A stretch of 64,000 nucleotides of DNA, taken from NCBI GenBank assembly GCA_964566135.1, contig CAZMHM010000001.1, positions 133,829 through 197,828 of the forward strand. The letters run 5' to 3'. The position numbers and the translations under genes are program-made. This document shows positions 17,614 through 57,167 of this stretch, in pieces (the first letter of the stretch is position 1; every line of letters begins with the position of its first letter). A model generated the notes under the pieces. The model was given only the letters and a program-made list of their open reading frames with translations, had not been told where the DNA came from and did no database searches. This DNA is from an uncultured Candidatus Saccharibacteria bacterium (GTDB lineage: Bacteria > Patescibacteriota > Saccharimonadia > Saccharimonadales > CAIOMD01).

Positions 17614-17635
17614 CACTAACACCATAAATGGTTGC

Positions 17636-17666
17636 GGCCCCGCCCGATGATGTATCGGGCGGGGCC
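17636..17666. terminator. 13-bp perfect GC hairpin between convergent genes (islet A 3' end)
   Basis: GGCCCCGCCCGAT-gatgt-ATCGGGCGGGGCC. No clean U-tract on the minus strand. TTGTGGTTG follows on the plus strand. Confidence 0.6.
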
Positions 17667-17687
17667 TTGTGGTTGGGGGGTGGTGGG

Positions 17688-18251
17688 CTAGGCGTTGACG
17701 ACGATGACCGTCGTTCCGACCTCTGCCCACTTGTACAGCGCGGCTGCCTGTGCGAGACTCTTGAGTCCCACGCAGCCGTGGCTGTACCGGTAGCCGGCGG
17801 CGTACTCCGAGCTGTAGTGGATGCCCTGACCGCCGCTGAACGGCATGAAGTAGGGCATCTTGACGTGGTACAGGGTGCTGACCTTGCTCACGTACTTAGC
17901 GAAGATCCGATAGATCCCACGCCTGGTAGGCCAAGGGCCCGTACCATCGCTTGCGCGGTGGATACCCTCGGCACCATGACGTGCCGCCATCTTCATGATG
18001 GGCTTGTGGTTCTGCAGGGCAACCAGCTGCCACGACTTGATGCCGACGCAGATGACCTTGCCGTGCTTGCCGTTGTAGTTCCGGCACACGCTGGGAACCC
18101 AGCTGGGCATGGTCACTGCACTTGCTGTCGCCTTGACGGCGGTCGTAGTGCGCTGCGGGGAAACAGACGCACCGTTAGCGGGGAGGGCAACGAGCATAAG
18201 GCTCGCCACCAGTAGTGGCGCTATCGCCACCCACTTATGCCTCATCATCAT
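17688..18251 (-). CDS. secreted L,D-transpeptidase (YkuD domain), in GC-rich islet A
   Basis: Signal peptide MMMRHKWVAIAPLLVASLMLVALPANG. Catalytic motif SHGCVGL. Strong G/C at third codon positions. RBS GGAAGGA. Confidence 0.8.
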   Translation of the reverse strand: MMMRHKWVAIAPLLVASLMLVALPANGASVSPQRTTTAVKATASAVTMPSWVPSVCRNYNGKHGKVICVGIKSWQLVALQNHKPIMKMAARHGAEGIHRASDGTGPWPTRRGIYRIFAKYVSKVSTLYHVKMPYFMPFSGGQGIHYSSEYAAGYRYSHGCVGLKSLAQAAALYKWAEVGTTVIVVNA

Positions 18252-22643: not shown

Positions 22644-24137
22644 TTGGATATACAAAATATTGAGGCAACTTTATGGCAAGCAGCAGATAAGCTGCGAAAT
22701 AACATGGACGCAGCTGAATATAAGCATATTGCGCTTGGCTTAATATTTCTTAAGTATGTATCAGATGCGTTTGACGAAAAACATAAAGAGTTAGAGGGTA
22801 CTCCTAACGCCGATCCAGAGGACCGTGATGAGTACACAAGTGAAAATGTTTTTTGGGTTCCAGTTGAAGCTCGCTGGGAAAACTTAAAGGCCAATGCGAA
22901 GCAACCGACTATTGGCGTACTTGTAGATAACGCGATGGACGCGATTGAACGCGACAATTCAAGCTTAAAGGGTGTTTTGCCAAAAGAGTATGCAAAGGAA
23001 CGCCTAGACAAACGCAGATTAGGTGAACTCATAGATACCTTTAGTAATATTCAGTTCCCGGAAGGGCATGCTAGCAAAGATCTTTTGGGTCGTATTTATG
23101 AATACTTCATGGGTATGTTCGCGGATGCGGAAGGCAAGCGAGGTGGTCAATTTTACACTCCACGATCAATCGTGCGTTTACTAGTAGAGATGCTTGCTCC
23201 GCAACCTGGAGCACGCATTTATGACCCCTGTTGCGGCAGTGGGGGTATGTTCGTGCAATCAGAGGAATTTATTACAGAGCACGCGGGCCGCGTTGGCGAT
23301 ATAGCAGTTTATGGGCAAGAATCAAACCAAACTACTTGGCGCTTGGCTAAAATGAATATGGCCATTAGGGGTATTGGTGCACAGATTGAATATGGCGATA
23401 CATTACATAACGACAAGCTGCCCGACTTAAAAGCAGATTTCGTAATTGCAAACCCGCCATTTAATGTGAGTGATTGGGGCGGAGAAAGTTTACGTAATGA
23501 TGTCCGCTGGAAGTTCGGCACACCACCAACCAGTAATGCAAACTTTGCATGGGTGCAGCACTTTATTCACCACCTCGCACCTAACGGTGTTGCCGGTTTT
23601 GTACTCGCCAACGGTAGCATGAGTAGCCAAAGCAGCGGCGAAGGAAATATCCGCAAAGAACTAATCGAAAAAGATATTGTGGACTGTATCGTCACGCTCC
23701 CAAGCCAGCTATTCTTTAACACTGGGATTCCAGCTTGTTTGTGGTTTGTGTCGCGTAATCGCGGTAATCGCAAAGGCAAAGTGCTTTTTGTTGACGCTCG
23801 AAATATGGGTCAAATGATAAACAGGCGTAACCGCGAGCTTACAAATGAGGACACAAAAAAAATCGCTGGTATTTACCAAGAATTCCGTAGCCAAGATGTG
23901 TCGTATAACGACGTCGCTGGGTTCGTAAAAGTTGCTACTTCGGCAGAGATTAAAGAGCGTGAATATATACTAACTCCAGGTCGCTATGTTGGCAGCGAAG
24001 TGTTTGATGATGACAATGAAAAATTCGAACAAAAAATGGCACGCTTAACCAAGGATTTGTCTAGTCAATTAGATATGAGCCTGAAGCTTGAAAAAGAGAT
24101 TAAAGAGAATCTCAAGAAAATAGGGTACGAGTTGTGA
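22644..24137 (+). CDS. hsdM: type I restriction-modification system, DNA methyltransferase subunit M
   Basis: HsdM N-terminal domain ([34 protein letters not shown]). SAM site [10 protein letters not shown]. Catalytic ANPPFN. Confidence 0.9.
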
Positions 24138-25180
24138 GTAAGGTAGTTGTGCTCGGTGATATTGCAACAGTTAAGAACGGCAAATCAAATACACAGGATG
24201 CAAAGAACGAAGGTCTTTATGATTTTTTTGACCGATCACAAGTAATTAAGAAAAGTGATCGGTTCATATTTGATACTGCCGGCACCATAATCCCGGGTGA
24301 AGGGAAGGATTTTAACCCAAGATTTTATAAAGGCAAGTTTGACCTACACCAACGTGCATACGTGATCATCGGTGATAGCAAAATTGTGGACGATGTATTC
24401 CTCTATTATGCTATAACAGCAAATAAAGAGTACCTTGCCCGTACGGCAGTAGGTTCAACTGTAAAATCTCTGAGAAAACCACAAATCGAACAGATGCAGT
24501 TAAATTTGCCCGATTTACCTATCCAAAAAAAAATTGCTGACATTCTATGGAATATTGATAAGAAAATTGAACTAAACACGATAATTAACGAGACGCTGGA
24601 ACAGATCTGCATTGCAATCTTTAATAAAAATTTCATTAAAAGCCCAGACGTCATAGATTGGGATATAATAACTCTCGGCCAAAAGATACACCCTAAAAGA
24701 GGCAAAAGCCTTACTTCAAAGAACATGAAAGTTGGTGAAGTCCCTGTTATTAGCGGTGGGTTGCGTCCCGCGGGTTTGCACAATGAAGCAAACACTGTAG
24801 CACCAGTAATCACCGTAAGCGCCTCAGGTGCGAACGCGGGGTTTGTTGCCCTTTGGGGCGACAAAATATGGTCAGCCGACTCTTCTTATATTGACAGCAA
24901 AGTGACTAATGAAGTTTATTTTTATTATATTTTTCTAAAAATTAACCAGGGTAAAATTTTTGGGATGCAAACTGGTGCCGCTCAACCACATATATATCCA
25001 AGTCATTTGGAACTTCTAGAAATTCCTGACGCTCCGGACAGTCTTATTTCTGAACTAAATAGCACAATATCACCGCTATTAGAAAAAATTACTAATAACA
25101 ATAGAGAAAATAATACCCTAGCATCTACTCGTGACAAACTGCTACCTCGTCTAATCTCTGGAAAGATAAATGTTAACTAA
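24134..25180 (+). CDS. hsdS: type I R-M specificity subunit S (two target-recognition domains)
   Basis: GTG start overlaps the hsdM stop (GTGA). Two TRD halves separated by conserved helical spacers ([14 protein letters not shown]...; ...[14 protein letters not shown]). Confidence 0.85.
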
Positions 25181-26198
25181 ACTACCAAAAATAGTCTTAG
25201 ACACGAATTCGTGCAGAAGCGCACCTGAGAGTCTTGGTTTTCTTGGATACAAAGAACATTTACGTACTATTGGAGAAAGCGCACAAATCATAATTCCCGA
25301 GACTGTTATTGACGAGATTAAAGATGACAAAATTAAATACTTTAACGGGCAAAAAAATCATATCCAACAAAACCCTCTGATTAAAATTGCAAATATCGAC
25401 ATACGAGATGTGGTTAGTTTTGAAGTCGAGGGCCATGTATCCGGCATTCTGGCCGAAGAATCTGTAAATTTTATTATTTATGTGTTGAAAAGACCTAGCG
25501 AAGCTTACTCAAAAATTTATAACTGGTCCGTAAACCATCAGCCACCCTTTGAAGAGAAAGGCGATAAGGGGTTCAAAGACGCACTTATTGCTTGTGCTGT
25601 TGAAGAGCTGCTTGAAGATGAAGCTAATGAGGCAGTTTACTTCATTACAAAAGATAAAAAACTTATTGAAAAATTCAAATCAAATACAAGAGTAGTTCTT
25701 ATTGAAGATTTCGGAGAAGTAAGCAAGTATCTTTACGATCAATTTGTTGATGAGTATCTTATGCAAAGAATAGTTGGAGACTTAGGGCTACCAGCTGCAG
25801 AAATCGTAGGTGGTTGGCTAAATATTGATGACAATTGGGTTCTTAAGCTTATGGAAAGTAAACAACCCTACCTTGTTTTAGTTGATAGAGAAGCTCGTGA
25901 GATTATTGATAGTACGATCGAGGTTTCTGATGAAGAGGTTCAGTCACTCATAAATAGCGTTTCTTTCGCAAACACGCAGGCAACTATCGAAGCACTTGCT
26001 GAAAGCATAAAATACGCACCAATTAATGTTCTAGTGGAACTCACTAATAGCGCACTAAAAAACGACCAAATATATTCAATAGGGACCAATGATGATGTTA
26101 AAGATTTTTTTCATCCAATCTTTAAAAAAACAAAGAGTTATCTAAATAATGATGATGCCGCTAAATTTAAAGAGTACTTTGGAGTTGTAAATGACTGA
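25170..26198 (+). CDS. PIN-like (DUF4935-like) nuclease-domain protein embedded in the type I R-M operon; C-terminal roughly 160 aa unknown
   Basis: Overlaps the hsdS end by 11 nt and the hsdR start by 8 nt. Four PIN acidic positions sit in canonical contexts: [36 protein letters not shown]. Confidence 0.7.
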
Positions 26199-29100
26199 GG
26201 ATAAAATCGAGCAGAACTCATTGGAAATTTTAACTAATCTTGGGTGGCAAGTATTACATGGACCAGATATTGGGCCTGATGGAACAAACGAACGTAGCTA
26301 TAATGATGCCTCGCTGTCACGCAGGCTTGATGCCGCAATAATGCGTATTAACCCCAACGTTCCGCACCTTGCGCAGGCAGAAGCAATAAAGCACATTTTA
26401 CGTACCACAGAGCCAACCTTACAATTAGATAATCGTGAATTCCATAACTTATTAGTAAACGGCATAGACGTAGAATACCGTGATGATAGCGGTAATATTC
26501 GTACCAACAAAGTCTGGTTACTTGACTCCGAGAACCCTGAAAATAACGAATTTGTAGCTGTAAACCAATACACCATGCTACAGGGAGATTACCACCGCCG
26601 GCCAGATATTGTATTGTGCGTAAATGGCCTGCCCTTTGCCGTAATAGAGCTAAAAGACCCAAGCGACGAAAAGGCAAGCCTCAGGGCAGCTTACAATCAA
26701 TTGCAAACTTACAAAGCAGAAATACCAGCATTATTCCGTTTTAACGAACTACTGATAATTAGTGACGGCATAGATGCAGAACTAGGCACTATAAGTGCCA
26801 ATTACGAGCGCTTTACTCCGTGGAAAACTATAGACGGCAGCAAAGAACTTACCGGCGTACCAATGCTAGAAGTTTTACTGCGTGGCGTATGCGATAAAGT
26901 GCGTTTTATTGATTTAGTGCGCAATTTTGTTGTGTTTGAACGTGATGAATCACAGCATAATTACATAAAAAAACTTGCCGCTTACCACCAATACTGGGCA
27001 GTTAATAAAGCAGTGCAATCTACTATTACTGCGACACAACCAGGTAGCGACCACCGCATTGGGGTAGTGTGGCATACACAAGGGTCTGGCAAAAGCTTAA
27101 GTATGGTTTTTTATAGCGGCCGTTTAATGCTGCAGCCAGAGCTTAGAAACCCAACAATTGTAGTGATAACGGACCGCAACGATTTAGACGACCAGCTATT
27201 TGGCACATTTAGTAACTGCGTAGACTTACTACGTGAAACGCCACAACAAGCTGTTAGCCGTGATGACTTGCAAAAACTGCTAACTCGCGAAGCGGGTGGA
27301 ATTATATTTACCACCAACGCCAAATTCTTCCCAGAAGAAGGCAACGACTACCCTATGCTTACCGATCGTAGCAATATTATTGTTATGGCAGACGAAGCCC
27401 ATCGTAGCCAATACAATTTTATAGACGGTTTTGCCAAACACATTAGGCAAGCGCTACCAAATGCCAGCTTTATTGGTTATACCGGCACACCGATAGAACA
27501 TGAAGACAAATCTACCCCGGCAGTATTCGGTAACTACATAGATGTCTATGACATAGAGCAAGCTGTGGTAGATGGCGCAACAGTACCGATTTATTACGAA
27601 AGCCGATTAGTTGAGCTTGATATTGACCAATCAATGCGCAGCAAAATCGATATTGAAATAGAAGAATTATTAGAGGCAGAAGAGTTTGATAAGCAAGAAG
27701 AATACAAAACTCGCAACGCACAGCTAGAAGCAATTGTTGGCAACAGCAAGCGCATAGAGCGCATTGCTCAAGATATTGTAGACCACTTCGAAAACAGAGT
27801 TTCTGCAATAGATGGCAAGGGAATGATTGTTGTTATGAGCCGCCGAATTGCGATTAGCCTATATAACGCAATTATAGATATTCGCCCAGACTGGCATGAT
27901 GCCGATGACGCAAAAGGCTACATTAAAGTCGTAATGACCGGAAGTGCATCCGATCCGCTTGATTGGCAGCAGCATATACGCAACAAAGAGCGCCGCGGGA
28001 AATTAGCCGACCGTATGAAAGATTCAGAATCAGACCTCAAACTAGTCATTGTATGTGATATGTGGCTTACAGGTTTTGACGTACCAAGTTTGCATACTAT
28101 GTACCTAGACAAGCCAATGAAAGGCCATAACTTGATGCAAGCTATTGCGCGTATCAACCGTGTTTACAAAGATAAGCCAGGTGGCTTGGTAGTAGATTAC
28201 CTGGGCGTAGCTGCTGCTTTGCGTGAGGCGTTAGAAACTTATACCACGAGTGGTGGTAAGGGTAAGCCAACCTTAAATCAAGCAGATGCGGTTGCAGTAA
28301 TGAAAGAAAAGTTTGAAATCCTACAAAATTTGTTTAGTGATTTTGAATACGAAAAATACTTTAACTCTGACACTGGCGCACAGATGCAAGTTATATTAGA
28401 TGCACAAGAATATATTCTTGGGCTAGAAGATGGTGAAAAGCGCCTAAAACAACATGTGTTAGAACTTTCTAAGGCTTTTGCATTAAGCGTGCCACACTTG
28501 GATGCAATTGCTATTCGCGATCATGTCGCATTCTTTCAGGCTATAAAAGCGCGCCTGGCAAAAATTAGCGATAAAAAGGGTATGAGTGCCGAAGATTATA
28601 ATTCTGCTATTAGGCAAATCGTTGATAAAGCAATTGCCCCAGCAGGCGTTGTGGACATTTTTGAAGCAGCAGGGTTAGAGCGCCCCAATTTGTCTATTTT
28701 AAGTGAAGAATTTTTAGCAGAAATACGCGGCATGGAGCGCCGAAACCTTGCAATAGAAGCATTACAGCGATTACTTAATGATGAAGTGCGAACGAGATTT
28801 AGCACTAATGCTGTTAAGGCGCGTTCATTTGCGGACATGCTAGTCCAGGCATTGCAGCGTTACAAAAATAACAGTATAGAAGCAGCACAGGTTATAGAAG
28901 AACTTATACAAATAGCTCGCCAAATTCGGGATAGCGAAAAAGAAGCAGAAGAACTTGGCCTAAGTTCTGATGAGATAGCGTTTTATGATGCATTGGCTGC
29001 AAATGGTAGCGCACGCGAGGTTTTGGGCGATGAACAATTACGCAAGCTAGCTGCAGTATTAGTGCAACGGGTACGCGCAAATGTTACCGTAGACTGGACA

Positions 29101-29247
29101 TTGCGCCAAGATGCGCAAGCTCGCTTACGAGTAGAAGTTAAAAGATTATTGCGCGAATACGGTTATCCACCAGACGCTGAAAAAATTGCAACAGAACTTG
29201 TGCTAGAACAGGCCAGCCTTTTTGGTGAAGAGTGGAGCAATCAATAA
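26191..29247 (+). CDS. hsdR: type I restriction endonuclease subunit R
   Basis: 1018 aa. N-terminal HsdR_N nuclease region, helicase motifs TQGSGKS and DEAHRSQ, long C-terminal helical domain. Confidence 0.9.
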
Positions 29248-30335: not shown

Positions 30336-30698
30336 TCATCGGGTCGGCAGCATGCGCCACCAGTGGTACGGACCGTTGTAGTCCATGTTGCAGACATCCA
30401 CCTTCATGAACGTGTCGTTCTTGCGGGTGGGGATGGCCGGGACGAACTTGTCGCCGATGCAGTCGGTGTTGCCGTTGCCGGTGTGGTGCTTGCCGGTGTC
30501 GTCGACGAGTGCAGCGTGGATTCCCACCTCGCCACAGGCGCAGTCGACACAGCGCAGGTACGTGTGCTCGAGCACCTTGCCGTAGCAACGCCACAGCTTG
30601 ACGCCGGTCTTGCCACAGTTCCCGCAGACGTAGCTGCTGGGGACGGTGTTCTGGGTGTAGTCGACCGGCTCAGCCGGGTTAACTACCTTGGCCACCAT
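30336..30698 (-). CDS. GC-rich islet B: Cys-rich (zinc-ribbon-like) hypothetical protein, 120 aa
   Basis: GGAG lies 8 nt upstream of the ATG. Codon position 3 is almost always G/C. CGNCG...C..C.C motifs. The other three overlapping ORFs lack an RBS. Confidence 0.65.
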   Translation of the reverse strand: MVAKVVNPAEPVDYTQNTVPSSYVCGNCGKTGVKLWRCYGKVLEHTYLRCVDCACGEVGIHAALVDDTGKHHTGNGNTDCIGDKFVPAIPTRKNDTFMKVDVCNMDYNGPYHWWRMLPTR

Positions 30699-32963: not shown

Positions 32964-33008
32964 AAAATAAAAAAAGGCGGGGGAGCGGGCTGCATCCGCA
33001 GCCCGCCC
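32964..33008 (-). terminator. GC hairpin plus T-run terminator of the islet C gene
   Basis: Minus strand GGGCGGGCTGC-GGAT-GCAGCCCGCTCCC, then CCGCC TTTTTTTATTTT. Confidence 0.65.
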
Positions 33009-33028
33009 ACACTCGATATCGGCTGCTT

Positions 33029-33283
33029 TTACGGCTGAGCCGGCACAGCAGCGAGTGCCTTGAACTGCAGAAGCGAGTAGTCGATCCAACCAGGGTCGAA
33101 CCCGTACTCACTCTTGATGCAGTTCCTGAACGCCATTGCGACGTTCTTCTGGTAGTTCTCCTCGCCGGCCCTTGCTCGGGCGAACGAGTTGTCGTTGATG
33201 CGCATGCGCCCGATCGTCAGACGACGAGAACGCATGGACACTTCGTACACGGTACTGGCACCTCTCGGCAACCAAACCACCAC
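33029..33283 (-). CDS. GC-rich islet C: hypothetical protein (up to 84 aa; start uncertain)
   Basis: GC3-rich frame ending 20 nt before the terminator hairpin. An alternative internal start exists at MRSRRLTIG. Confidence 0.5.
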   Translation of the reverse strand: MVVWLPRGASTVYEVSMRSRRLTIGRMRINDNSFARARAGEENYQKNVAMAFRNCIKSEYGFDPGWIDYSLLQFKALAAVPAQP

Positions 33284-33418
33284 CTTACTGTAAAGTGCCC
33301 AACAATCTGCTGAGACAACAATACAGTATAATATTTAGTACTTTTTTGCAATTATAACTTGCCGAAACTAATTAACTATGTTAAATAAGTTGTAGTCCTC
33401 TAGTGTCAGGAGAATGTC

Positions 33419-33745
33419 ATGGCCCAGCGTAGCACTGGAAGCTACCACGCAGGGTTCTTGCGTGGTAAGGGCACGATGCTGTTCGACGACGAAGTGCTGC
33501 TCGAACTGCAGCACCCACGCCAGATGCACGTACGCCGTGCAGCAACCACCAGCAACGGGATCAGCGGGTGCATGCTGACCTGCGAGCTCGGCTCGGCGAC
33601 GGCGATTCCGTTCTTTGTACCGGACGCCGACGAGGTGCGCTACAAGGCGCTCAATCTTGCGCACTACATCGAAGGCCTGCAAGACGGCATCATGCGGCGT
33701 GCAACCGAGCTGAAGAGCAAGCGCATTCGTCAACTCGGCGCCTAA
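33419..33745 (+). CDS. GC-rich islet D: hypothetical protein, 108 aa
   Basis: CAGGAG lies 8 nt upstream of the ATG. GC3-rich. A terminator follows. The opposite-strand ORF 33368-33748 has neither an RBS nor a terminator. Confidence 0.6.
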   Translation: MAQRSTGSYHAGFLRGKGTMLFDDEVLLELQHPRQMHVRRAATTSNGISGCMLTCELGSATAIPFFVPDADEVRYKALNLAHYIEGLQDGIMRRATELKSKRIRQLGA

Positions 33746-33764
33746 CATTCCAACACTGAGGACT

Positions 33765-33802
33765 CCCGGGCGGCTATCGCTGCCCGGGTTTCTTCATTTT
33801 TT
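33765..33802 (+). terminator. rho-independent terminator of the islet D gene
   Basis: CCCGGGCGGC-tatc-GCTGCCCGGG (one G-U pair) followed by TTTCTTCATTTTTT. Confidence 0.7.
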
Positions 33803-33906
33803 GCATACGCTACCTAAATACTAATTACTAATAATACTTGGGTAGAGCCCCGTCTGGGCGGACCGCTGGATGCGATCTGCCCGAGACGGGAAGCCCTGGG
33901 GTGGTA

Positions 33907-34332
33907 CTACGCGGCGACGTTGCCGGCGATGCAGCTCCGGATGGTTCCGGGCACTGCGTCTTCGGTGAAGTCGACGTGCTCGATGAACGTGTGCTGTGCC
34001 TCGCGGTACGGCTTCTTCCAGCGCCGGATGACGTGGCGCCCCACCTTCGACTTCTTGAAGTAGTCGGGGTTGTTGGGATTGCGAACCACGACGATGGCGA
34101 TGAACGTCCAGTCGGTGACGACCAGGAAGCGCTCGCCTTCGACGCTGTCCTGCGCCGGATCGAGGCTCTTGATGCCGTCGGTCTCGACGTAGATCGTGTC
34201 GCACGTGTTATCGCCGGGGCTGGGCCAGCACTCGACGACGTAGAAGGGCGCTGCCGACTTGTGCAGGGTTACGTCCTCGTTGCTGACGTTGATGCGCTTG
34301 GCCATGTAACGCTCGAGCTTGTGTCGTTTCAT
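33907..34332 (-). CDS. GC-rich islet E: hypothetical protein, 141 aa
   Basis: GGGGGG lies upstream of the ATG. GC3-rich. An imperfect GC hairpin follows the stop, within 33852-33893. Confidence 0.6.
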   Translation of the reverse strand: MKRHKLERYMAKRINVSNEDVTLHKSAAPFYVVECWPSPGDNTCDTIYVETDGIKSLDPAQDSVEGERFLVVTDWTFIAIVVVRNPNNPDYFKKSKVGRHVIRRWKKPYREAQHTFIEHVDFTEDAVPGTIRSCIAGNVAA

Positions 34333-34376
34333 TGTCCCCCCAGGGGTAGTGCCTGCAGGGTAGCAGACGAAATTTC

Positions 34377-34405
34377 ACTATACAACGTCGTAAAGACAAG
34401 TACAA
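34377..34405 (-). promoter_or_regulatory. sigma70-like promoter for the islet E gene
   Basis: Minus strand TTGTAC-N17-TATAGT. Confidence 0.45.
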
Positions 34406-34480
34406 GCATGAGCACCATAGACATTCCAATATTATAATAATTATGGTAAAATATATTTTTTATAAACCGCACCACCAATA

Positions 34481-35815
34481 ATGAACAGACTACGTACTAA
34501 ACTTGGAGTTACCAGCGCAACCATCGCATTAGGTGGTAGCTTGGCATTATCTGGTTGCAGCAGCGAAGCCGTATCTGACCTAGCGCATTCTATTGCTGCC
34601 CAGATGCCAGAAGCAAGCCCAACGCCAGAAGAACCACAAAACTTTTGCCCACCTACGTCAGAAGATAACGACCAAATTGCCAAGCTAATGGCAGAACAAT
34701 GCGCGCAAGCAATCCATCGTGGTCATGTTGCGCTTGTTGGCTATGGCATCAGCATGCCAGTGCTTACGAGGCTCGCAAATGATACCGAACGCCTGATGGA
34801 AGATGTTACCGAAGGCGAATCGCACATTGATGTCGTGCCAGTGCAGGCAACAATAAACCAAACTATTAGTTTTGACGAGGTAACTGGCAAATGCGTAGAT
34901 GTTGATGAAGTAACAGATGCACCTGGCTATGTGGCGAACGTAGTTGACGAAACCCTAAACGAATACGATTTCGTGATTGGTGCAACTACTAAGCCCGCCT
35001 GCAAAGGCGACGGCGATATCACAGATATTAGTGGTACATATACCGGCCAGGCAGGTGGCAGATTTATAACCATTTTAGGAGCCGACACTACCTTTCCGCT
35101 CCATAACAAAACCATAACTGACCCTGACGGGACAATTCACACACAAGTACACCAGCATGATGCTGGCGTGGCTGTACACGAACTATTGCACGGATATGGC
35201 CTAGGCCATGTCAACGAAGCAAGTGGCGATTCGCTGGATGATGTTGCATCGAAACAAGACTACACGCCGCCGTATAACGTCAATCTGCAAAAACTTTTAA
35301 AGCAAAATAATTTAGTTGAGTATGGCGATTCGTTAAACATTATGGGTGGTAGCAACCCAGATATGTCAGACCCAGATAGTCTAGAAACAACACCACTTAA
35401 CACAACACAACTAGCATGGCTTGGCGAATCTGACGTTATTCTTGGTAATAAGCAAAGTAAGTTTGTCGCTCTAAGCGAAACGCCAACGGCAGTGCAGAGT
35501 CAGACTGCATATACCCTAGAACTCGCTAAACCAGTTACAGCGCCCAACTTTAAGCAGGGTAAGGGCACATATTTAACAAGCGGCGGGGCTAATGCGGTAT
35601 ATAGCAAAATAATCATAGAAGACCCAGCCAAAAATAATGATAGTCCGGGTTCGATATTGACCGTATATCTAGCATCAGACGATTCACACGATTTAGTAAA
35701 CTTAGGCACAATTTTTGGTGGCGAAAAAGCTGTATGGAACATAGCCTACGGCACACAAAAGATAACTATACGCATTACTGATACCGGTGCGACACTAGCA
35801 GCGACTACTGTTTAG
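34481..35815 (+). CDS. lipoprotein zinc metalloprotease (metzincin-type HExxHxxGxxH)
   Basis: Lipobox LALSGC. Zinc motif HELLHGYGLGH. Confidence 0.75.
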   Translation: MNRLRTKLGVTSATIALGGSLALSGCSSEAVSDLAHSIAAQMPEASPTPEEPQNFCPPTSEDNDQIAKLMAEQCAQAIHRGHVALVGYGISMPVLTRLANDTERLMEDVTEGESHIDVVPVQATINQTISFDEVTGKCVDVDEVTDAPGYVANVVDETLNEYDFVIGATTKPACKGDGDITDISGTYTGQAGGRFITILGADTTFPLHNKTITDPDGTIHTQVHQHDAGVAVHELLHGYGLGHVNEASGDSLDDVASKQDYTPPYNVNLQKLLKQNNLVEYGDSLNIMGGSNPDMSDPDSLETTPLNTTQLAWLGESDVILGNKQSKFVALSETPTAVQSQTAYTLELAKPVTAPNFKQGKGTYLTSGGANAVYSKIIIEDPAKNNDSPGSILTVYLASDDSHDLVNLGTIFGGEKAVWNIAYGTQKITIRITDTGATLAATTV

Positions 35816-38693: not shown

Positions 38694-39050
38694 GTGATTG
38701 ATTTGCATCGATTGAAGGACATCCGTGAGGCCCATGGTCTCACTGTCGCAGATCTGGCGGAACTGTCGGGCATCGCGCCCAGCACCATCTTCCGGATCGA
38801 AAGCGACGACAACTGGTACAAGGTGAACGAGGTCACAGCAGAGGCACTGGCGAGCGCGCTTTACAAGAGCGTGCTGGACATCTTCAACAGCCGTGAACTC
38901 AGCCACCTTGGGCGACCGCCACACACAGGGAGGCCATGTCATGAAGCCGAGAGATTCAGCAACCGGACGACCTGTCCGTCATGCCACCTCGAAGTTCTCA
39001 AGGCAGCCACCTGCAACGAGTGCGACGCGCCGCTCACCATGTCGGCCTAG
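38694..39050 (+). CDS. GC-rich islet F: XRE-family HTH regulator with C-terminal Cys4 zinc-ribbon-like tail
   Basis: HTH LTVADLAELSGIAPSTIFRIE. C-terminus CPSCH...CNEC. GC3-rich. GTG or TTG start. Confidence 0.7.
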   Translation: MIDLHRLKDIREAHGLTVADLAELSGIAPSTIFRIESDDNWYKVNEVTAEALASALYKSVLDIFNSRELSHLGRPPHTGRPCHEAERFSNRTTCPSCHLEVLKAATCNECDAPLTMSA

Positions 39051-55310: not shown

Positions 55311-55380
55311 ATTTGAAAATTATTATAACACTATTATACCATATTTGTCAATAATATACCTCTGTTGTACAATAGAGTTT

Positions 55381-55851
55381 ATGGCAATTAAAAAATCGCC
55401 GCAACCTGCGCAGATAGTAAATAAGCAGGCCCGGCGAGATTACGAGCTACAAAAGACCTATCAGGCCGGCATTATGCTTATTGGGCCAGAGGTAAAAAGC
55501 CTGCGCACTGGCCACGGCCATTTGCGTGGTGCGTTTGTGAACATTAAAGATGGCGAATTGTGGTTATACAACGCTACCATCAATGCTACGAACGCCAACC
55601 GCTCGGCATTGTCAGAATCAGACCAAACACGGGCACGGAAACTACTCGTTAGTAAAAAAGAACTTGGCGAACTCGCCGCTGCGAAAGAGCAGGGACTCAC
55701 TATCATCCCGCTGAAGTTACATACCAGCAAGCACTACATAAAAGTAGACATTGCTACTGCGAAAGGGCTCAAAAAATACGATAAACGCGAAAAGATAAAA
55801 AAACGTGATACTGGCCGAGATGTTGCGCGAGCACTTAAGAATATCTCTTAA
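55381..55851 (+). CDS. smpB: SsrA-binding protein
   Basis: Start moved to MAIKK. NKQARRDYE, GPEVKSLR and the C-terminal basic tail. Confidence 0.9.
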   Translation: MAIKKSPQPAQIVNKQARRDYELQKTYQAGIMLIGPEVKSLRTGHGHLRGAFVNIKDGELWLYNATINATNANRSALSESDQTRARKLLVSKKELGELAAAKEQGLTIIPLKLHTSKHYIKVDIATAKGLKKYDKREKIKKRDTGRDVARALKNIS

Positions 55852-55924: not shown

Positions 55925-56284
55925 TCAGGTCAGGGCGGGCTGGTGCAGGCGGCGGTAGCTGATGTCGACACCAGTCGTCTCGACGCACTTGCCGATCCTC
56001 TTCTGGATGAGCGTGAGCGTCACGTGCACGTCATCGGTGTAGATGACGCAGCACGCCGTACTGCGGATGTTGGCGCGGGACTGCGACATGGGCGGCTTGG
56101 TGTCCGGGAAGAACACCTCGGAGCCCGCCGGGCAGTCGACGACCTTGGCTTCGCTGTGCTTGACGAACTGGAACGACGCATCGTGGATCAGCTTGGTTTT
56201 GCCACCACGAGCCATCGCGCTCTCGAAGAGAGCCGTGACCTGGTCCTGCCAGGCCTGTGCCGAGTCTGATGAAAGTTGCACCAC
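55925..56284 (-). CDS. GC-rich islet G: hypothetical protein, 119 aa
   Basis: GC3-rich frame with a GTG start. The opposite-strand ORFs 55943-56269 and 56043-56660 are judged artefacts. Confidence 0.55.
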   Translation of the reverse strand: MVQLSSDSAQAWQDQVTALFESAMARGGKTKLIHDASFQFVKHSEAKVVDCPAGSEVFFPDTKPPMSQSRANIRSTACCVIYTDDVHVTLTLIQKRIGKCVETTGVDISYRRLHQPALT

Positions 56285-56324
56285 ACCGTTCCTAACACTA
56301 GATTCCGACGATTTGGGTATACCT

Positions 56325-56353
56325 ACTATATACTATTTATGCTTACATTGCAA
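56325..56353 (-). promoter_or_regulatory. sigma70-like promoter for the islet G gene
   Basis: Minus strand TTGCAA-N17-TATAGT. Confidence 0.5.
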
Positions 56354-56363
56354 TATACTCACG

Positions 56364-56392
56364 TTGCAAAAATTATCATTTTATAGTCTAAT
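56364..56392 (+). promoter_or_regulatory. sigma70-like promoter for the islet H operon
   Basis: TTGCAA-N17-TCTAAT, followed by the leader hairpin CTTTCG(t)GGCC-atc-GGCCCGAAAG. Confidence 0.4.
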
Positions 56393-56451
56393 ACTAACTA
56401 GTCTTTCGTGGCCATCGGCCCGAAAGTTGCACCCCGACCCGAGGAGCACAA

Positions 56452-56622
56452 ATGCTGAGAAGAATCCTGTGCGCGCTTGGCGTACACGAGAAGCCTCCCG
56501 GCTACAGGCCGGACAGCAGTGGCAAGGTACACGAAGTGTGCCCTCGCTGCGGACACGGCCGCGTCTACGACGCAGCCGAACACGGCATGCTCAAGATGTC
56601 CCCCAACCACAAGGAGCAGTGA
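56452..56622 (+). CDS. GC-rich islet H gene 1: 56-aa zinc-ribbon protein (prophage-type C..G.H...C.RCG pattern)
   Basis: GAGGAG lies 5 nt upstream of the ATG. MLRRILCALGVHEKP...CPRCGHG. Its TGA stop directly abuts the ATG of the next gene (TGAATG). Below the ORF-track size cut-off. Confidence 0.6.
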   Translation: MLRRILCALGVHEKPPGYRPDSSGKVHEVCPRCGHGRVYDAAEHGMLKMSPNHKEQ

Positions 56623-57039
56623 ATGGGCCTGACCGATCAAGAAAAAGATCTACTCGATGACCTGGCGCAAGCCATGATCATCGAAGCCATGCTCGTACGT
56701 GGCGACATCGACAAGACCAACGCCGGCTACTGGTTGGACTTCATCCACCAGTTCAAGCACGGCAAGCGGTACGACTCGCCTCGTTACACCGAGCACCCCG
56801 AGCTCAAGTGGTACTACTTCATGACCGAGCAGGGCGTCACGCCCACCATCGCCATGAAGATGGCCTATCACATGGGCGGCAAGTTCGCCTGTGTCGAGGA
56901 TGGCATCACCTGGCTCAGCTCCGTCCGTGACGGTGACACTGATCCGCGAGTTCGTGAGATCAGCTGGAACCAGTACGCCGGCGGTCTGAACGAACTTCGC
57001 CAGATGCCCGGCGTCTCGACCGTGCTCAGTCCCTCGTAG
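56623..57039 (+). CDS. GC-rich islet H gene 2: hypothetical protein, 138 aa
   Basis: Closely coupled to the upstream micro-gene (stop and start adjacent). GC3-rich. A terminator follows. Confidence 0.6.
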   Translation: MGLTDQEKDLLDDLAQAMIIEAMLVRGDIDKTNAGYWLDFIHQFKHGKRYDSPRYTEHPELKWYYFMTEQGVTPTIAMKMAYHMGGKFACVEDGITWLSSVRDGDTDPRVREISWNQYAGGLNELRQMPGVSTVLSPS

Positions 57040-57049
57040 TACGGTTACC

Positions 57050-57105
57050 CCGAAGGGACGGGCGTTCACGACGAACGCCCGTCCCTCGGACGCACATTTT
57101 TGTTT
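57050..57105 (+). terminator. rho-independent terminator of islet H
   Basis: CCGA(a)GGGACGGGCGTTC-acgac-GAACGCCCGTCCCTCGG, then ..TTTTTGTTTG. Confidence 0.7.
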
Positions 57106-57167
57106 GTTATATTGCTAAATTATTTTTAGCCATACAACAAGCGAAGATTATCTTGTACAATACAGGT

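Follow-up and report, generated by a model that had tools for sequence, protein, structure and literature searches.

Positions 32,964 to 34,405 of a 64-kb stretch of DNA from an uncultured Candidatus Saccharibacteria bacterium (the whole stretch is called the window below) hold three small GC-rich genes, here named C, D and E, and raise the question of whether these genes entered the chromosome as one transferred block or are separate units with histories of their own. We regard it as probable that they are three separate, monocistronic, moron-like units of the chromosome and belong to a wider class of exchanged modules. In each unit, a sigma-70-type promoter in an AT-rich spacer would be followed by a Shine-Dalgarno sequence, one small open reading frame (ORF) with a high GC content at third codon positions (GC3) and a GC-rich hairpin after the stop codon. 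The units would be packed head to head and tail to tail, and their products would be unrelated small cytoplasmic proteins that are exclusive to this bacterial lineage. Nine of the ~75 genes in the window would belong to this genome-wide class, whose members would each be gained or lost as a whole, and likewise replaced or allelically exchanged, with exchange breakpoints at the promoter and terminator edges.

The three genes and their flanking signals

The window has a GC content of 45.0% (mean 0.450 and standard deviation 0.056 in 200-bp windows), and across the locus the composition swings between ORFs of 58-62% GC and AT-rich spacers of 29-38% GC, much as the first-pass annotation of this DNA had described with its GC/AT/GC/AT/GC oscillation. 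That annotation had also reported three unrelated GC3-rich ORFs in alternating orientation, and their coordinates and strands are reproduced by the ORF listing (Table 1). On the called strands, C, D and E have GC3 values of 0.75, 0.76 and 0.89, respectively, compared to 0.28-0.48 in host genes; the opposite-strand ORFs, which were compared for D and E, have a GC3 of 0.61 over D and 0.55 over E. Neither blastp nor blastn detects any similarity among the three, and inspection by eye reveals no signal peptide in any of them. The cluster is part of a variable region that follows a type I restriction-modification (R-M) operon, 3.8 kb past hsdR.

C is a real coding gene, as indicated by a protein family with invariant residues and by a confident fold. 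The family comprises 12 homologues (eight proteins and four further loci, at 42-88% identity; 50-85% for the eight proteins), and its alignment A1 contains 17 invariant residues. The ORF and strand originally annotated for C stand, but its start does not: the family alignment favors a TTG at 33271 (MPRG...), with an AAGGTGG Shine-Dalgarno sequence upstream, over the GTG at 33283. Structure prediction, which had been proposed as a check on the proteins, was successful in part. The AlphaFold2 model of C is confident, with a predicted local distance difference test (pLDDT) score of 87 and a beta-beta-alpha-alpha-beta topology, but its Foldseek matches are weak, and the model of E is poor (pLDDT 47). 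A GIY-YIG nuclease fold was considered for C and rejected: the matches to I-TevI and phage GIY-YIG proteins have E-values of at least 0.05 and template modeling (TM) scores of 0.35-0.45, nine family members give zero Pfam GIY-YIG matches even at an E-value of 10 or less, and the family as a whole does not share the 'TIG' found in the window copy.

D is a real coding gene on the plus strand. Its sole homologue, protein P0008 on contig L005, is 86% identical, and a comparison of the two gives a nonsynonymous divergence (dN) of 0.065, a synonymous divergence (dS) of 0.57 and a dN/dS of 0.11, with 31 of the 46 differences at third codon positions. In addition, the ORF opposite to D gains a stop codon in L005.

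E is likewise a real coding gene, on the minus strand. Its dN/dS against L005 is 0.27, compared to ~1.2 for the shadow frame, and in another metagenome the gene call for its one true homologue (P0017, 139 amino acids, 52% identity, E-value 6e-33) is on the same strand. Proteins P0018 and P0019 were rejected as homologues of E, their matches being sums of low-complexity or repeat matches, and a Gudongella match (L004; 39% identity over 44 amino acids) was rejected as weak. The N-terminal segment of E may be helix-turn-helix-like, which is offered as a lead. A word-index search missed the 96%-identical copy of E in L005.

The first-pass annotation had recognized no motif in the three proteins, and the library and Protein Data Bank (PDB) searches are equally empty. 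Scans of C, D, E and the other GC-rich ORFs of the window against Pfam, PHROGs, PADLOC and NCBIfam match only genes F (XRE helix-turn-helix) and A (YkuD), which lie elsewhere in the window; C has no match in any of the four libraries. Profile searches of the PDB with C and PDB sequence searches with D and E find nothing. Public gene calls on identical contigs contain shadow ORFs in place of D and E (Table 1). The true D and E proteins are absent from the exact-match look-up because the public assemblies call these opposite-strand ORFs, which were rejected as real genes on the grounds of GC3, dN/dS and the stop codon in L005. Where gene callers choose the wrong strand in this way, a class of small proteins will be missing or corrupted in the databases for this lineage.

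A pattern search reveals near-consensus -35/-10 pairs upstream of C and E and a weaker pair upstream of D, in which the assignment of the -10 box is weak. The candidate -35 boxes of C and D stand back to back, 7 bp apart. These promoter-like sites are conserved along with the genes. The counterpart of the C site at the equivalent position of contig L013 reads TTGACA-15-TATATT; the same architecture as that of E (TTGCAA-17-TATAGT, leader and GGGGGA) is found upstream of its 52%-identical homologue on contig L014; and the promoter and leader of D differ from those of L005 at 2 positions in 61 bp, while the ORF behind them diverges by 14%. TTGCAA-17-TATAGT also precedes two GC-rich genes elsewhere in the window, F and G.

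A GC-rich hairpin follows each of the three genes, as had been noted at first pass, and all three are confirmed, with folding energies of -28 to -37 kcal/mol and z-scores of -2.7 to -6.2. The T-runs noted alongside them correspond to a U-run after C and a T-rich tail after D, and the hairpin of E is imperfect, as described. D and E do converge across intergenic DNA that carries both hairpins and an AT-rich stretch. The hairpin of C (32981-33010, minus strand) folds at -28 kcal/mol (z -2.7 against dinucleotide shuffles), and its position is kept across six loci of the C family; five of its 11 pairs show compensatory double changes. The hairpin of D (33765-33788, with an outer stem at 33757-33796, plus strand) folds at -31.2 kcal/mol (z -6.2), is detected by a terminator scan and differs from that of L005 by a single change, in the loop. 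L014 is also similar to the window at the start of the 3' region of E. We infer from these features that the conserved motifs act as promoters and terminators.

Several observations concern the neighborhoods of C homologues and of E. The homologue of C at L015 (1663-1905) contains an in-frame stop codon (STV*EV) and is apparently a pseudogene, although a sequencing error is possible. The methionine sulfoxide reductase gene msrA (PMSR) is a recurrent neighbor of C homologues (L010, 218-709; L012, 1321-1812; L018, 1307-1600), which it flanks divergently on the upstream side in one lineage and convergently on the downstream side in others; msrA is absent from the 64-kb window. Some strains of a distant relative carry an insertion sequence (IS) element with an rve-family transposase, which lies upstream of their C homologue at a distance of 85 bp (Table 1). 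The idea that C is highly mobile, which came from the occurrence of an identical protein (P0016) on 13 contigs, was rejected, as these contigs represent one locus with and without the IS insertion. Upstream of E, two independent European Nucleotide Archive (ENA) assemblies of the same organism (L002, ~920-930; L003, ~890-900) carry a deletion of ~81 bp (window positions 34378-34458), which lies between the short similar sequences TTTCAcTATAcAAC and TTTTTTATAAACC and removes the -10 and -35 boxes of E as well as the putative promoter of the divergent 444-amino-acid lipoprotein gene. The full spacer is present in both the window and Logan contig L001. Samples that contain the organism include SRR13208889 and ERZ28614234. 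A metagenome scan with the neighboring 444-amino-acid gene found nothing.

Separate histories of C, D and E

Judging from the available relatives, the three units have separate histories, and there is no single imported block. C is missing from the 94%-identical relative L005, in which D, E and the 444-amino-acid gene are present. The alignment of L005 spans window positions 33358 to 35005, and to the left of the equivalent of 33358 L005 carries unrelated host-type genes (including a bPH_2 membrane protein) that are found nowhere in the 64-kb window. This breakpoint coincides precisely with the gap between the candidate -35 boxes of C and D. In L013, a C module that is 85% identical to that of the window is homologous to it only from 32964, the end of the U-run, to ~33330, in the promoter, and its flanks are unrelated to the window: they contain other GC-rich genes, AT-rich spacers and hairpins of their own. 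In addition, L012 and L013 share a left gene (60% amino acid identity) and a C homologue (64%) and differ between the two, where they carry non-homologous GC3-rich genes for very acidic proteins of 132 and 157 amino acids. It is tempting to speculate that acidic small proteins near R-M loci could be DNA mimics. No homologue of D or E lies beside a C homologue in any of the 12 C-family loci.

D, too, shows a history distinct from that of its surroundings. The D ORF is 14.1% diverged from L005, compared to 3.6% for the remaining aligned segment (Fisher p = 3e-11), and dS falls from 0.57 in D to 0.07 in E and 0.04 in the host gene. This pattern has the signature that allelic replacement of the D gene alone would leave. 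Exchange of this kind may proceed by homologous recombination through the neighboring sequence.

Several points weigh against a reading of the three genes as separate, exchanged units. The comparative contigs are few, short (0.7-17 kb) and metagenomic. The first-pass annotation had argued for independent modules rather than one transferred block; this holds for C versus D and E, from L005 and L013, and for D versus E by dS, but D and E are still contiguous in L005, the only relative that carries them, and the ~8-fold difference in dS is the single observation that sets them apart. In L006, a distant relative, a distance of ~2 kb with other genes separates C from a homologous type I R-M system (HsdR ~58% identical); C there keeps the side and orientation relative to R-M that it has in the window, and this synteny looks like long residence and not like mobility. 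Neither a recombinase nor terminal repeats nor any other mechanism of movement was found. The roles of the promoter- and terminator-like elements are suggested by in silico evidence, namely motifs, folding z-scores and the covariation in the C hairpin. Finally, the earlier claim that the 135-bp spacer between C and D holds both promoters agrees with candidate sites found by pattern and not with a generic promoter scan, which scored none of C, D and E.

Origin of the genes and the wider GC3-rich class

No donor of C, D or E is detectable. A search for their co-occurrence in actinophage or Actinomycetota genomes had been proposed, and the searches made turned up no homologues in phage records (tblastn against 50,697 records, no match at an E-value of 1 or less), in IMG/VR or in GC-rich genomes. 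The source in Actinomycetota or their phages that this proposal implies is not supported. Two collections of 5.8 billion clusters and 1.84 billion representative proteins contain only close relatives from the same lineage, and GTDB species genomes give just one weak, partial match, to E. PADLOC defense models give no match to C, D or E at an E-value of 0.1 or less. The lineage in which the proteins occur is known from sewage- and digester-type metagenomes and has a Gram-positive-type set of envelope genes (sortase, YkuD), and the homologues within it are, like C, D and E, GC-elevated islets in surroundings of 39-45% GC.

Both E versus its homologue and C versus its distant homologues show saturation of synonymous sites: conserved residues have a codon identity of 0.45-0.68, compared to 0.45-0.63 expected at saturation. 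Despite this saturation, GC3 is 0.84-0.89 for E and 0.59-0.75 for C.

C, D and E belong to a wider class. GC3 is bimodal over the ~75 ORFs of the window, with ~65 ORFs at 0.28-0.48, nine at 0.64-0.89 and almost none in between. The 3' hairpins of the nine genes account for eight of the 14 most stable 60-nucleotide folds in the 64 kb, and three more of these folds lie inside the same genes; host genes are without such hairpins. Codon usage in the class is dominated by TTC (97%), ATC (92%), AAC (95%), TAC (95%), AAG (95%) and CAG (84%), while host genes favor T- and A-ending codons. The possibility that the islets are copies of one mobile element was ruled out, as they share no DNA or protein sequence. 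Taken singly, C, D and E are accessory orphan genes of an ordinary kind, and it is the behavior of the class that is unusual: the strict bimodality of GC3, the hairpin-tagged single-gene units, the breakpoints at module edges and the composition that persists through saturation. An accessory role for such genes, for example in defense, anti-defense or regulation, seems plausible.

The persistent GC3 may reflect repeated exchange with an unseen reservoir of the same modules, codon selection in strongly expressed genes or a recombination-linked GC bias. A more far-reaching version of the preferred reading, which we consider possible and yet rather doubtful, is that this lineage harbors an undescribed class of autonomous promoter-ORF-hairpin cassettes of ~350-650 bp, accounting for ~1 gene in 8, whose GC3 is actively maintained and which are shuffled at transcription-unit boundaries. 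Upkeep of the composition could then come from continual exchange with an unseen GC-rich extrachromosomal reservoir of the same modules, of which L013, which has a GC content of 53% and three modules within 1.8 kb, may be a fragment, or from a recombination-linked GC bias.

The compositional data might also be taken to indicate recent horizontal acquisition from some GC-rich donor, for example a plasmid, an actinobacterium or one of its phages, with ORF and hairpin captured together, host-type AT-rich promoters recruited later and the GC content still unameliorated. The class has a codon usage resembling that of high-GC Gram-positives, several of its hairpins lack a U-tract, the contrast with the flanks is sharp, and presence or absence varies among relatives, all in favor of such a donor. 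We nevertheless judge a recent donor unlikely. Phages, IMG/VR and the two protein collections yielded no homologue, save for same-lineage copies in contexts of 39-45% GC. C and E are not recent arrivals: their homologues have diverged to synonymous saturation, and a GC3 of 0.59-0.89 persists at that divergence, which a single recent GC-rich import does not predict; moreover, the position of C beside a homologous R-M system is kept in a distant relative. That same synteny with R-M, together with the persistence of GC3 through saturated divergence and the recombination signature at D, would fit native, very highly expressed genes in which translational selection upholds GC3, or in which GC-biased gene conversion keeps it high because the loci are prone to recombination, so that composition would be silent on foreign origin. 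The strong predicted signals (near-consensus promoters of the form TTGCAA/TTGTAC-17-TATAGT, good Shine-Dalgarno sequences and the strongest terminators in the window) and the near-exclusive use of C-ending codons in two-fold NNY families point in this direction as well. However, G-ending codons (AAG 95%, CAG 84%) and four-fold families are also shifted, with GC3 up to 0.89, which is beyond usual translational selection; tract-wide biased conversion does not predict AT-rich spacers; the genes are orphans of patchy presence; and the window has no known highly expressed gene for calibration. A native origin of this kind is therefore, in our estimate, quite improbable.

It may be asked, finally, whether C, D and E form one functional system, toxin-antitoxin-like or anti-phage, attached to the type I R-M operon, the modular look being incidental. 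Their tight packing 3.8 kb downstream of hsdR, the joint retention of D and E in L005 and the proximity of the C homologue to type I R-M in L006 too would agree with this. Set against these are zero PADLOC matches, the 12 loci in which C homologues are never beside D or E homologues, the presence of D and E without C in L005, and the opposite orientations and separate terminators, which speak against co-expression; we hold one system to be very improbable. The reading of C, D and E as separate units of an exchanged class remains the one we prefer.

Other members of the class and their surroundings show several additional features. Islet A (GC3 0.80) encodes a protein with a signal peptide, a Pfam YkuD match (E-value 2e-15) and an SHGCVG motif, followed by a hairpin of -35 kcal/mol, and the database entry over it is a shadow ORF (17628-18215, plus strand). 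The protein of islet F has a C-terminal Cys-rich, zinc-ribbon-like tail; its gene has a predicted TTGCAA-17-TATAGT promoter, and its hairpin is the most stable in the window, at -40 to -42 kcal/mol. A three-gene GC-rich islet (55925-57110) is located directly downstream of smpB (55345-55851), in which G, on the minus strand, is divergent from the translationally coupled pair H'/I with a TGAATG overlap, and this arrangement is repeated in two other assemblies, L020 and L021. No transfer-messenger RNA (tmRNA) gene was detected near the smpB islet. In the R-M operon, two consecutive hsdS-sized genes (24134-25180 and 25170-26198) lie between hsdM and hsdR; the system is homologous to that of L006, which carries an extra SLFN/AlbA_2-HATPase gene.

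Table 1. Features of the C/D/E locus, of the wider GC3-rich class and of related contigs (window positions unless a contig is named)
Feature	Position	Strand	Description
Predicted intrinsic terminator of C	32964-33010	-	GGGCGGGCUGC-GGAU-GCAGCCCGC(UCCC), then C-rich stretch and U-run
Gene C	33029-33271	-	80-amino-acid basic cytoplasmic protein; extendable to GTG 33283; orphan family of 80-82 amino acids
C ORF	33029-33283 as first called; 33029-33271 with family-based start	-	GC 58.4%
C-D spacer	33284-33418 (135 bp)		GC 32.6%, core 28.7%
Putative promoter of C	33323-33351	-	TTGCAA (33351-33346), 15-nucleotide spacer, TATACT (33330-33325); found by pattern
Putative promoter and leader of D	33359-33413	+	-35 TTGCCG (33359-33364), candidate -10 TAAATA (33382-33387), Shine-Dalgarno GGAGA (33409-33413)
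Shadow ORF over D	33368-33748	-	126 amino acids
Gene D (ORF)	33419-33745	+	108-amino-acid orphan protein; GC 61.5%
Predicted intrinsic terminator of D	33757-33802	+	CCCGGGCGGC-UAUC-GCUGCCCGGG, outer stem, then T-rich tail
AT-rich junction between convergent terminators of D and E	33803-33843		GC 31% (33803-33844)
Shadow ORF over E	33838-34437	+	199, 181 or 179 amino acids
3' hairpin of E	33844-33897	-	Long imperfect stem without U-run; -37 kcal/mol, z -5.3
Gene E (ORF)	33907-34332	-	141-amino-acid orphan protein; GC 62.0%
Predicted leader and promoter of E	34333-34405	-	TTGTAC (34405-34400), 17-nucleotide spacer, TATAGT (34382-34377), ~45-nucleotide leader, Shine-Dalgarno GGGGGA
Spacer upstream of E	34333-34480		GC 38.5%
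Putative promoter of divergent 444-amino-acid host-type lipoprotein gene	34418-34447	+	TAGACA-18-TATGGT; promoter scan
Type I R-M operon	22644-29247		hsdM, two hsdS, hsdR
Class gene A	17688-18251	-	Secreted YkuD L,D-transpeptidase
Class gene B	30336-30698	-	Cys-rich
Class genes C, D, E	This locus		Orphan proteins
Class gene F	38694-39050	+	XRE helix-turn-helix
Class gene G	55925-56284	-	Orphan
Class gene H'	56452-56622	+	Small zinc ribbon, 56 amino acids
Class gene I	56623-57039	+	Orphan
Mutually replacing GC3-rich acidic genes beside C homologues	L012 398-796; L013 609-1082		No family match
IS insertion near C homologue	L007 2853-3758; L008 300-1205; L009		Absent from L006, L010 and L011

Comparison with known systems

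The units share with integron cassettes the form of small single-ORF modules ending in an imperfect inverted repeat, and array content varies in both, as in the replacement between L012 and L013. Unlike cassettes, each gene here has a promoter-like site of its own, orientations alternate, and the hairpins read as terminators, with U-runs after C and D and with covariation. The 3' hairpins of the nine modules have no common attC-like core (R' GTTRRRY), and no integron integrase or tyrosine recombinase was found among the ORFs scanned, which are part of the ORFs in the window. Integron cassettes were rejected on the basis of these promoter-like sites, the alternating orientations, the lack of an attC core and, among the ORFs scanned, the lack of intI.

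Compositionally atypical acquired islets are reportedly the subject of the amelioration model of Lawrence and Ochman. The present genes resemble such islets in their atypical GC content and codon usage, orphan proteins and strain-variable presence. They differ in that they are GC-rich and not AT-rich relative to the host, are the size of single genes and have no donor that could be found; moreover, there is no amelioration gradient, GC3 being strictly bimodal and persisting across saturated divergence. If the pattern is genome-wide, it would constitute an exception to the decay of foreign-looking composition, with a GC3 of 0.6-0.9 retained past saturation in genomes of 40-45% GC. Defense islands beside R-M systems also come to mind, since the cluster is just downstream of a type I R-M system, its content varies, and the C homologue of L006 is near R-M too; unlike in defense islands, C, D and E have no PADLOC match, and other class members lie far from R-M, for example beside smpB.

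The closest resemblance is to phage morons, which were reportedly first described in HK97/HK022. A moron carries a single small accessory ORF together with a promoter and a factor-independent terminator, to which the candidate promoter sites and the predicted terminators of the present units would correspond; in both cases the unit is located between unrelated genes and has a deviating composition and a mosaic distribution among relatives. Unlike morons, the C/D/E class occupies at least six sites in 64 kb of chromosome and lies in no recognizable prophage. Ten neighbors were scanned against PHROGs, and the two that matched have non-structural matches (an esterase/lipase family and two families of unknown function); no phage structural, integrase or transposase family was found among the neighbors scanned. 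The neighbors are of chromosomal type, namely type I R-M, an ICMT-like methyltransferase, an ion channel, a response regulator, AddA, SmpB and CorA. A further difference is that homologues of the class stay GC3-rich despite saturated synonymous sites. Morons have been defined as additions to phage genomes that form independent transcription units between the existing genes (Cumby, Davidson and Maxwell 2012, 'The moron comes of age', PMC3594210), and if the pattern seen in the window is genome-wide, this style of gene addition would extend from phages to the bacterial chromosome.

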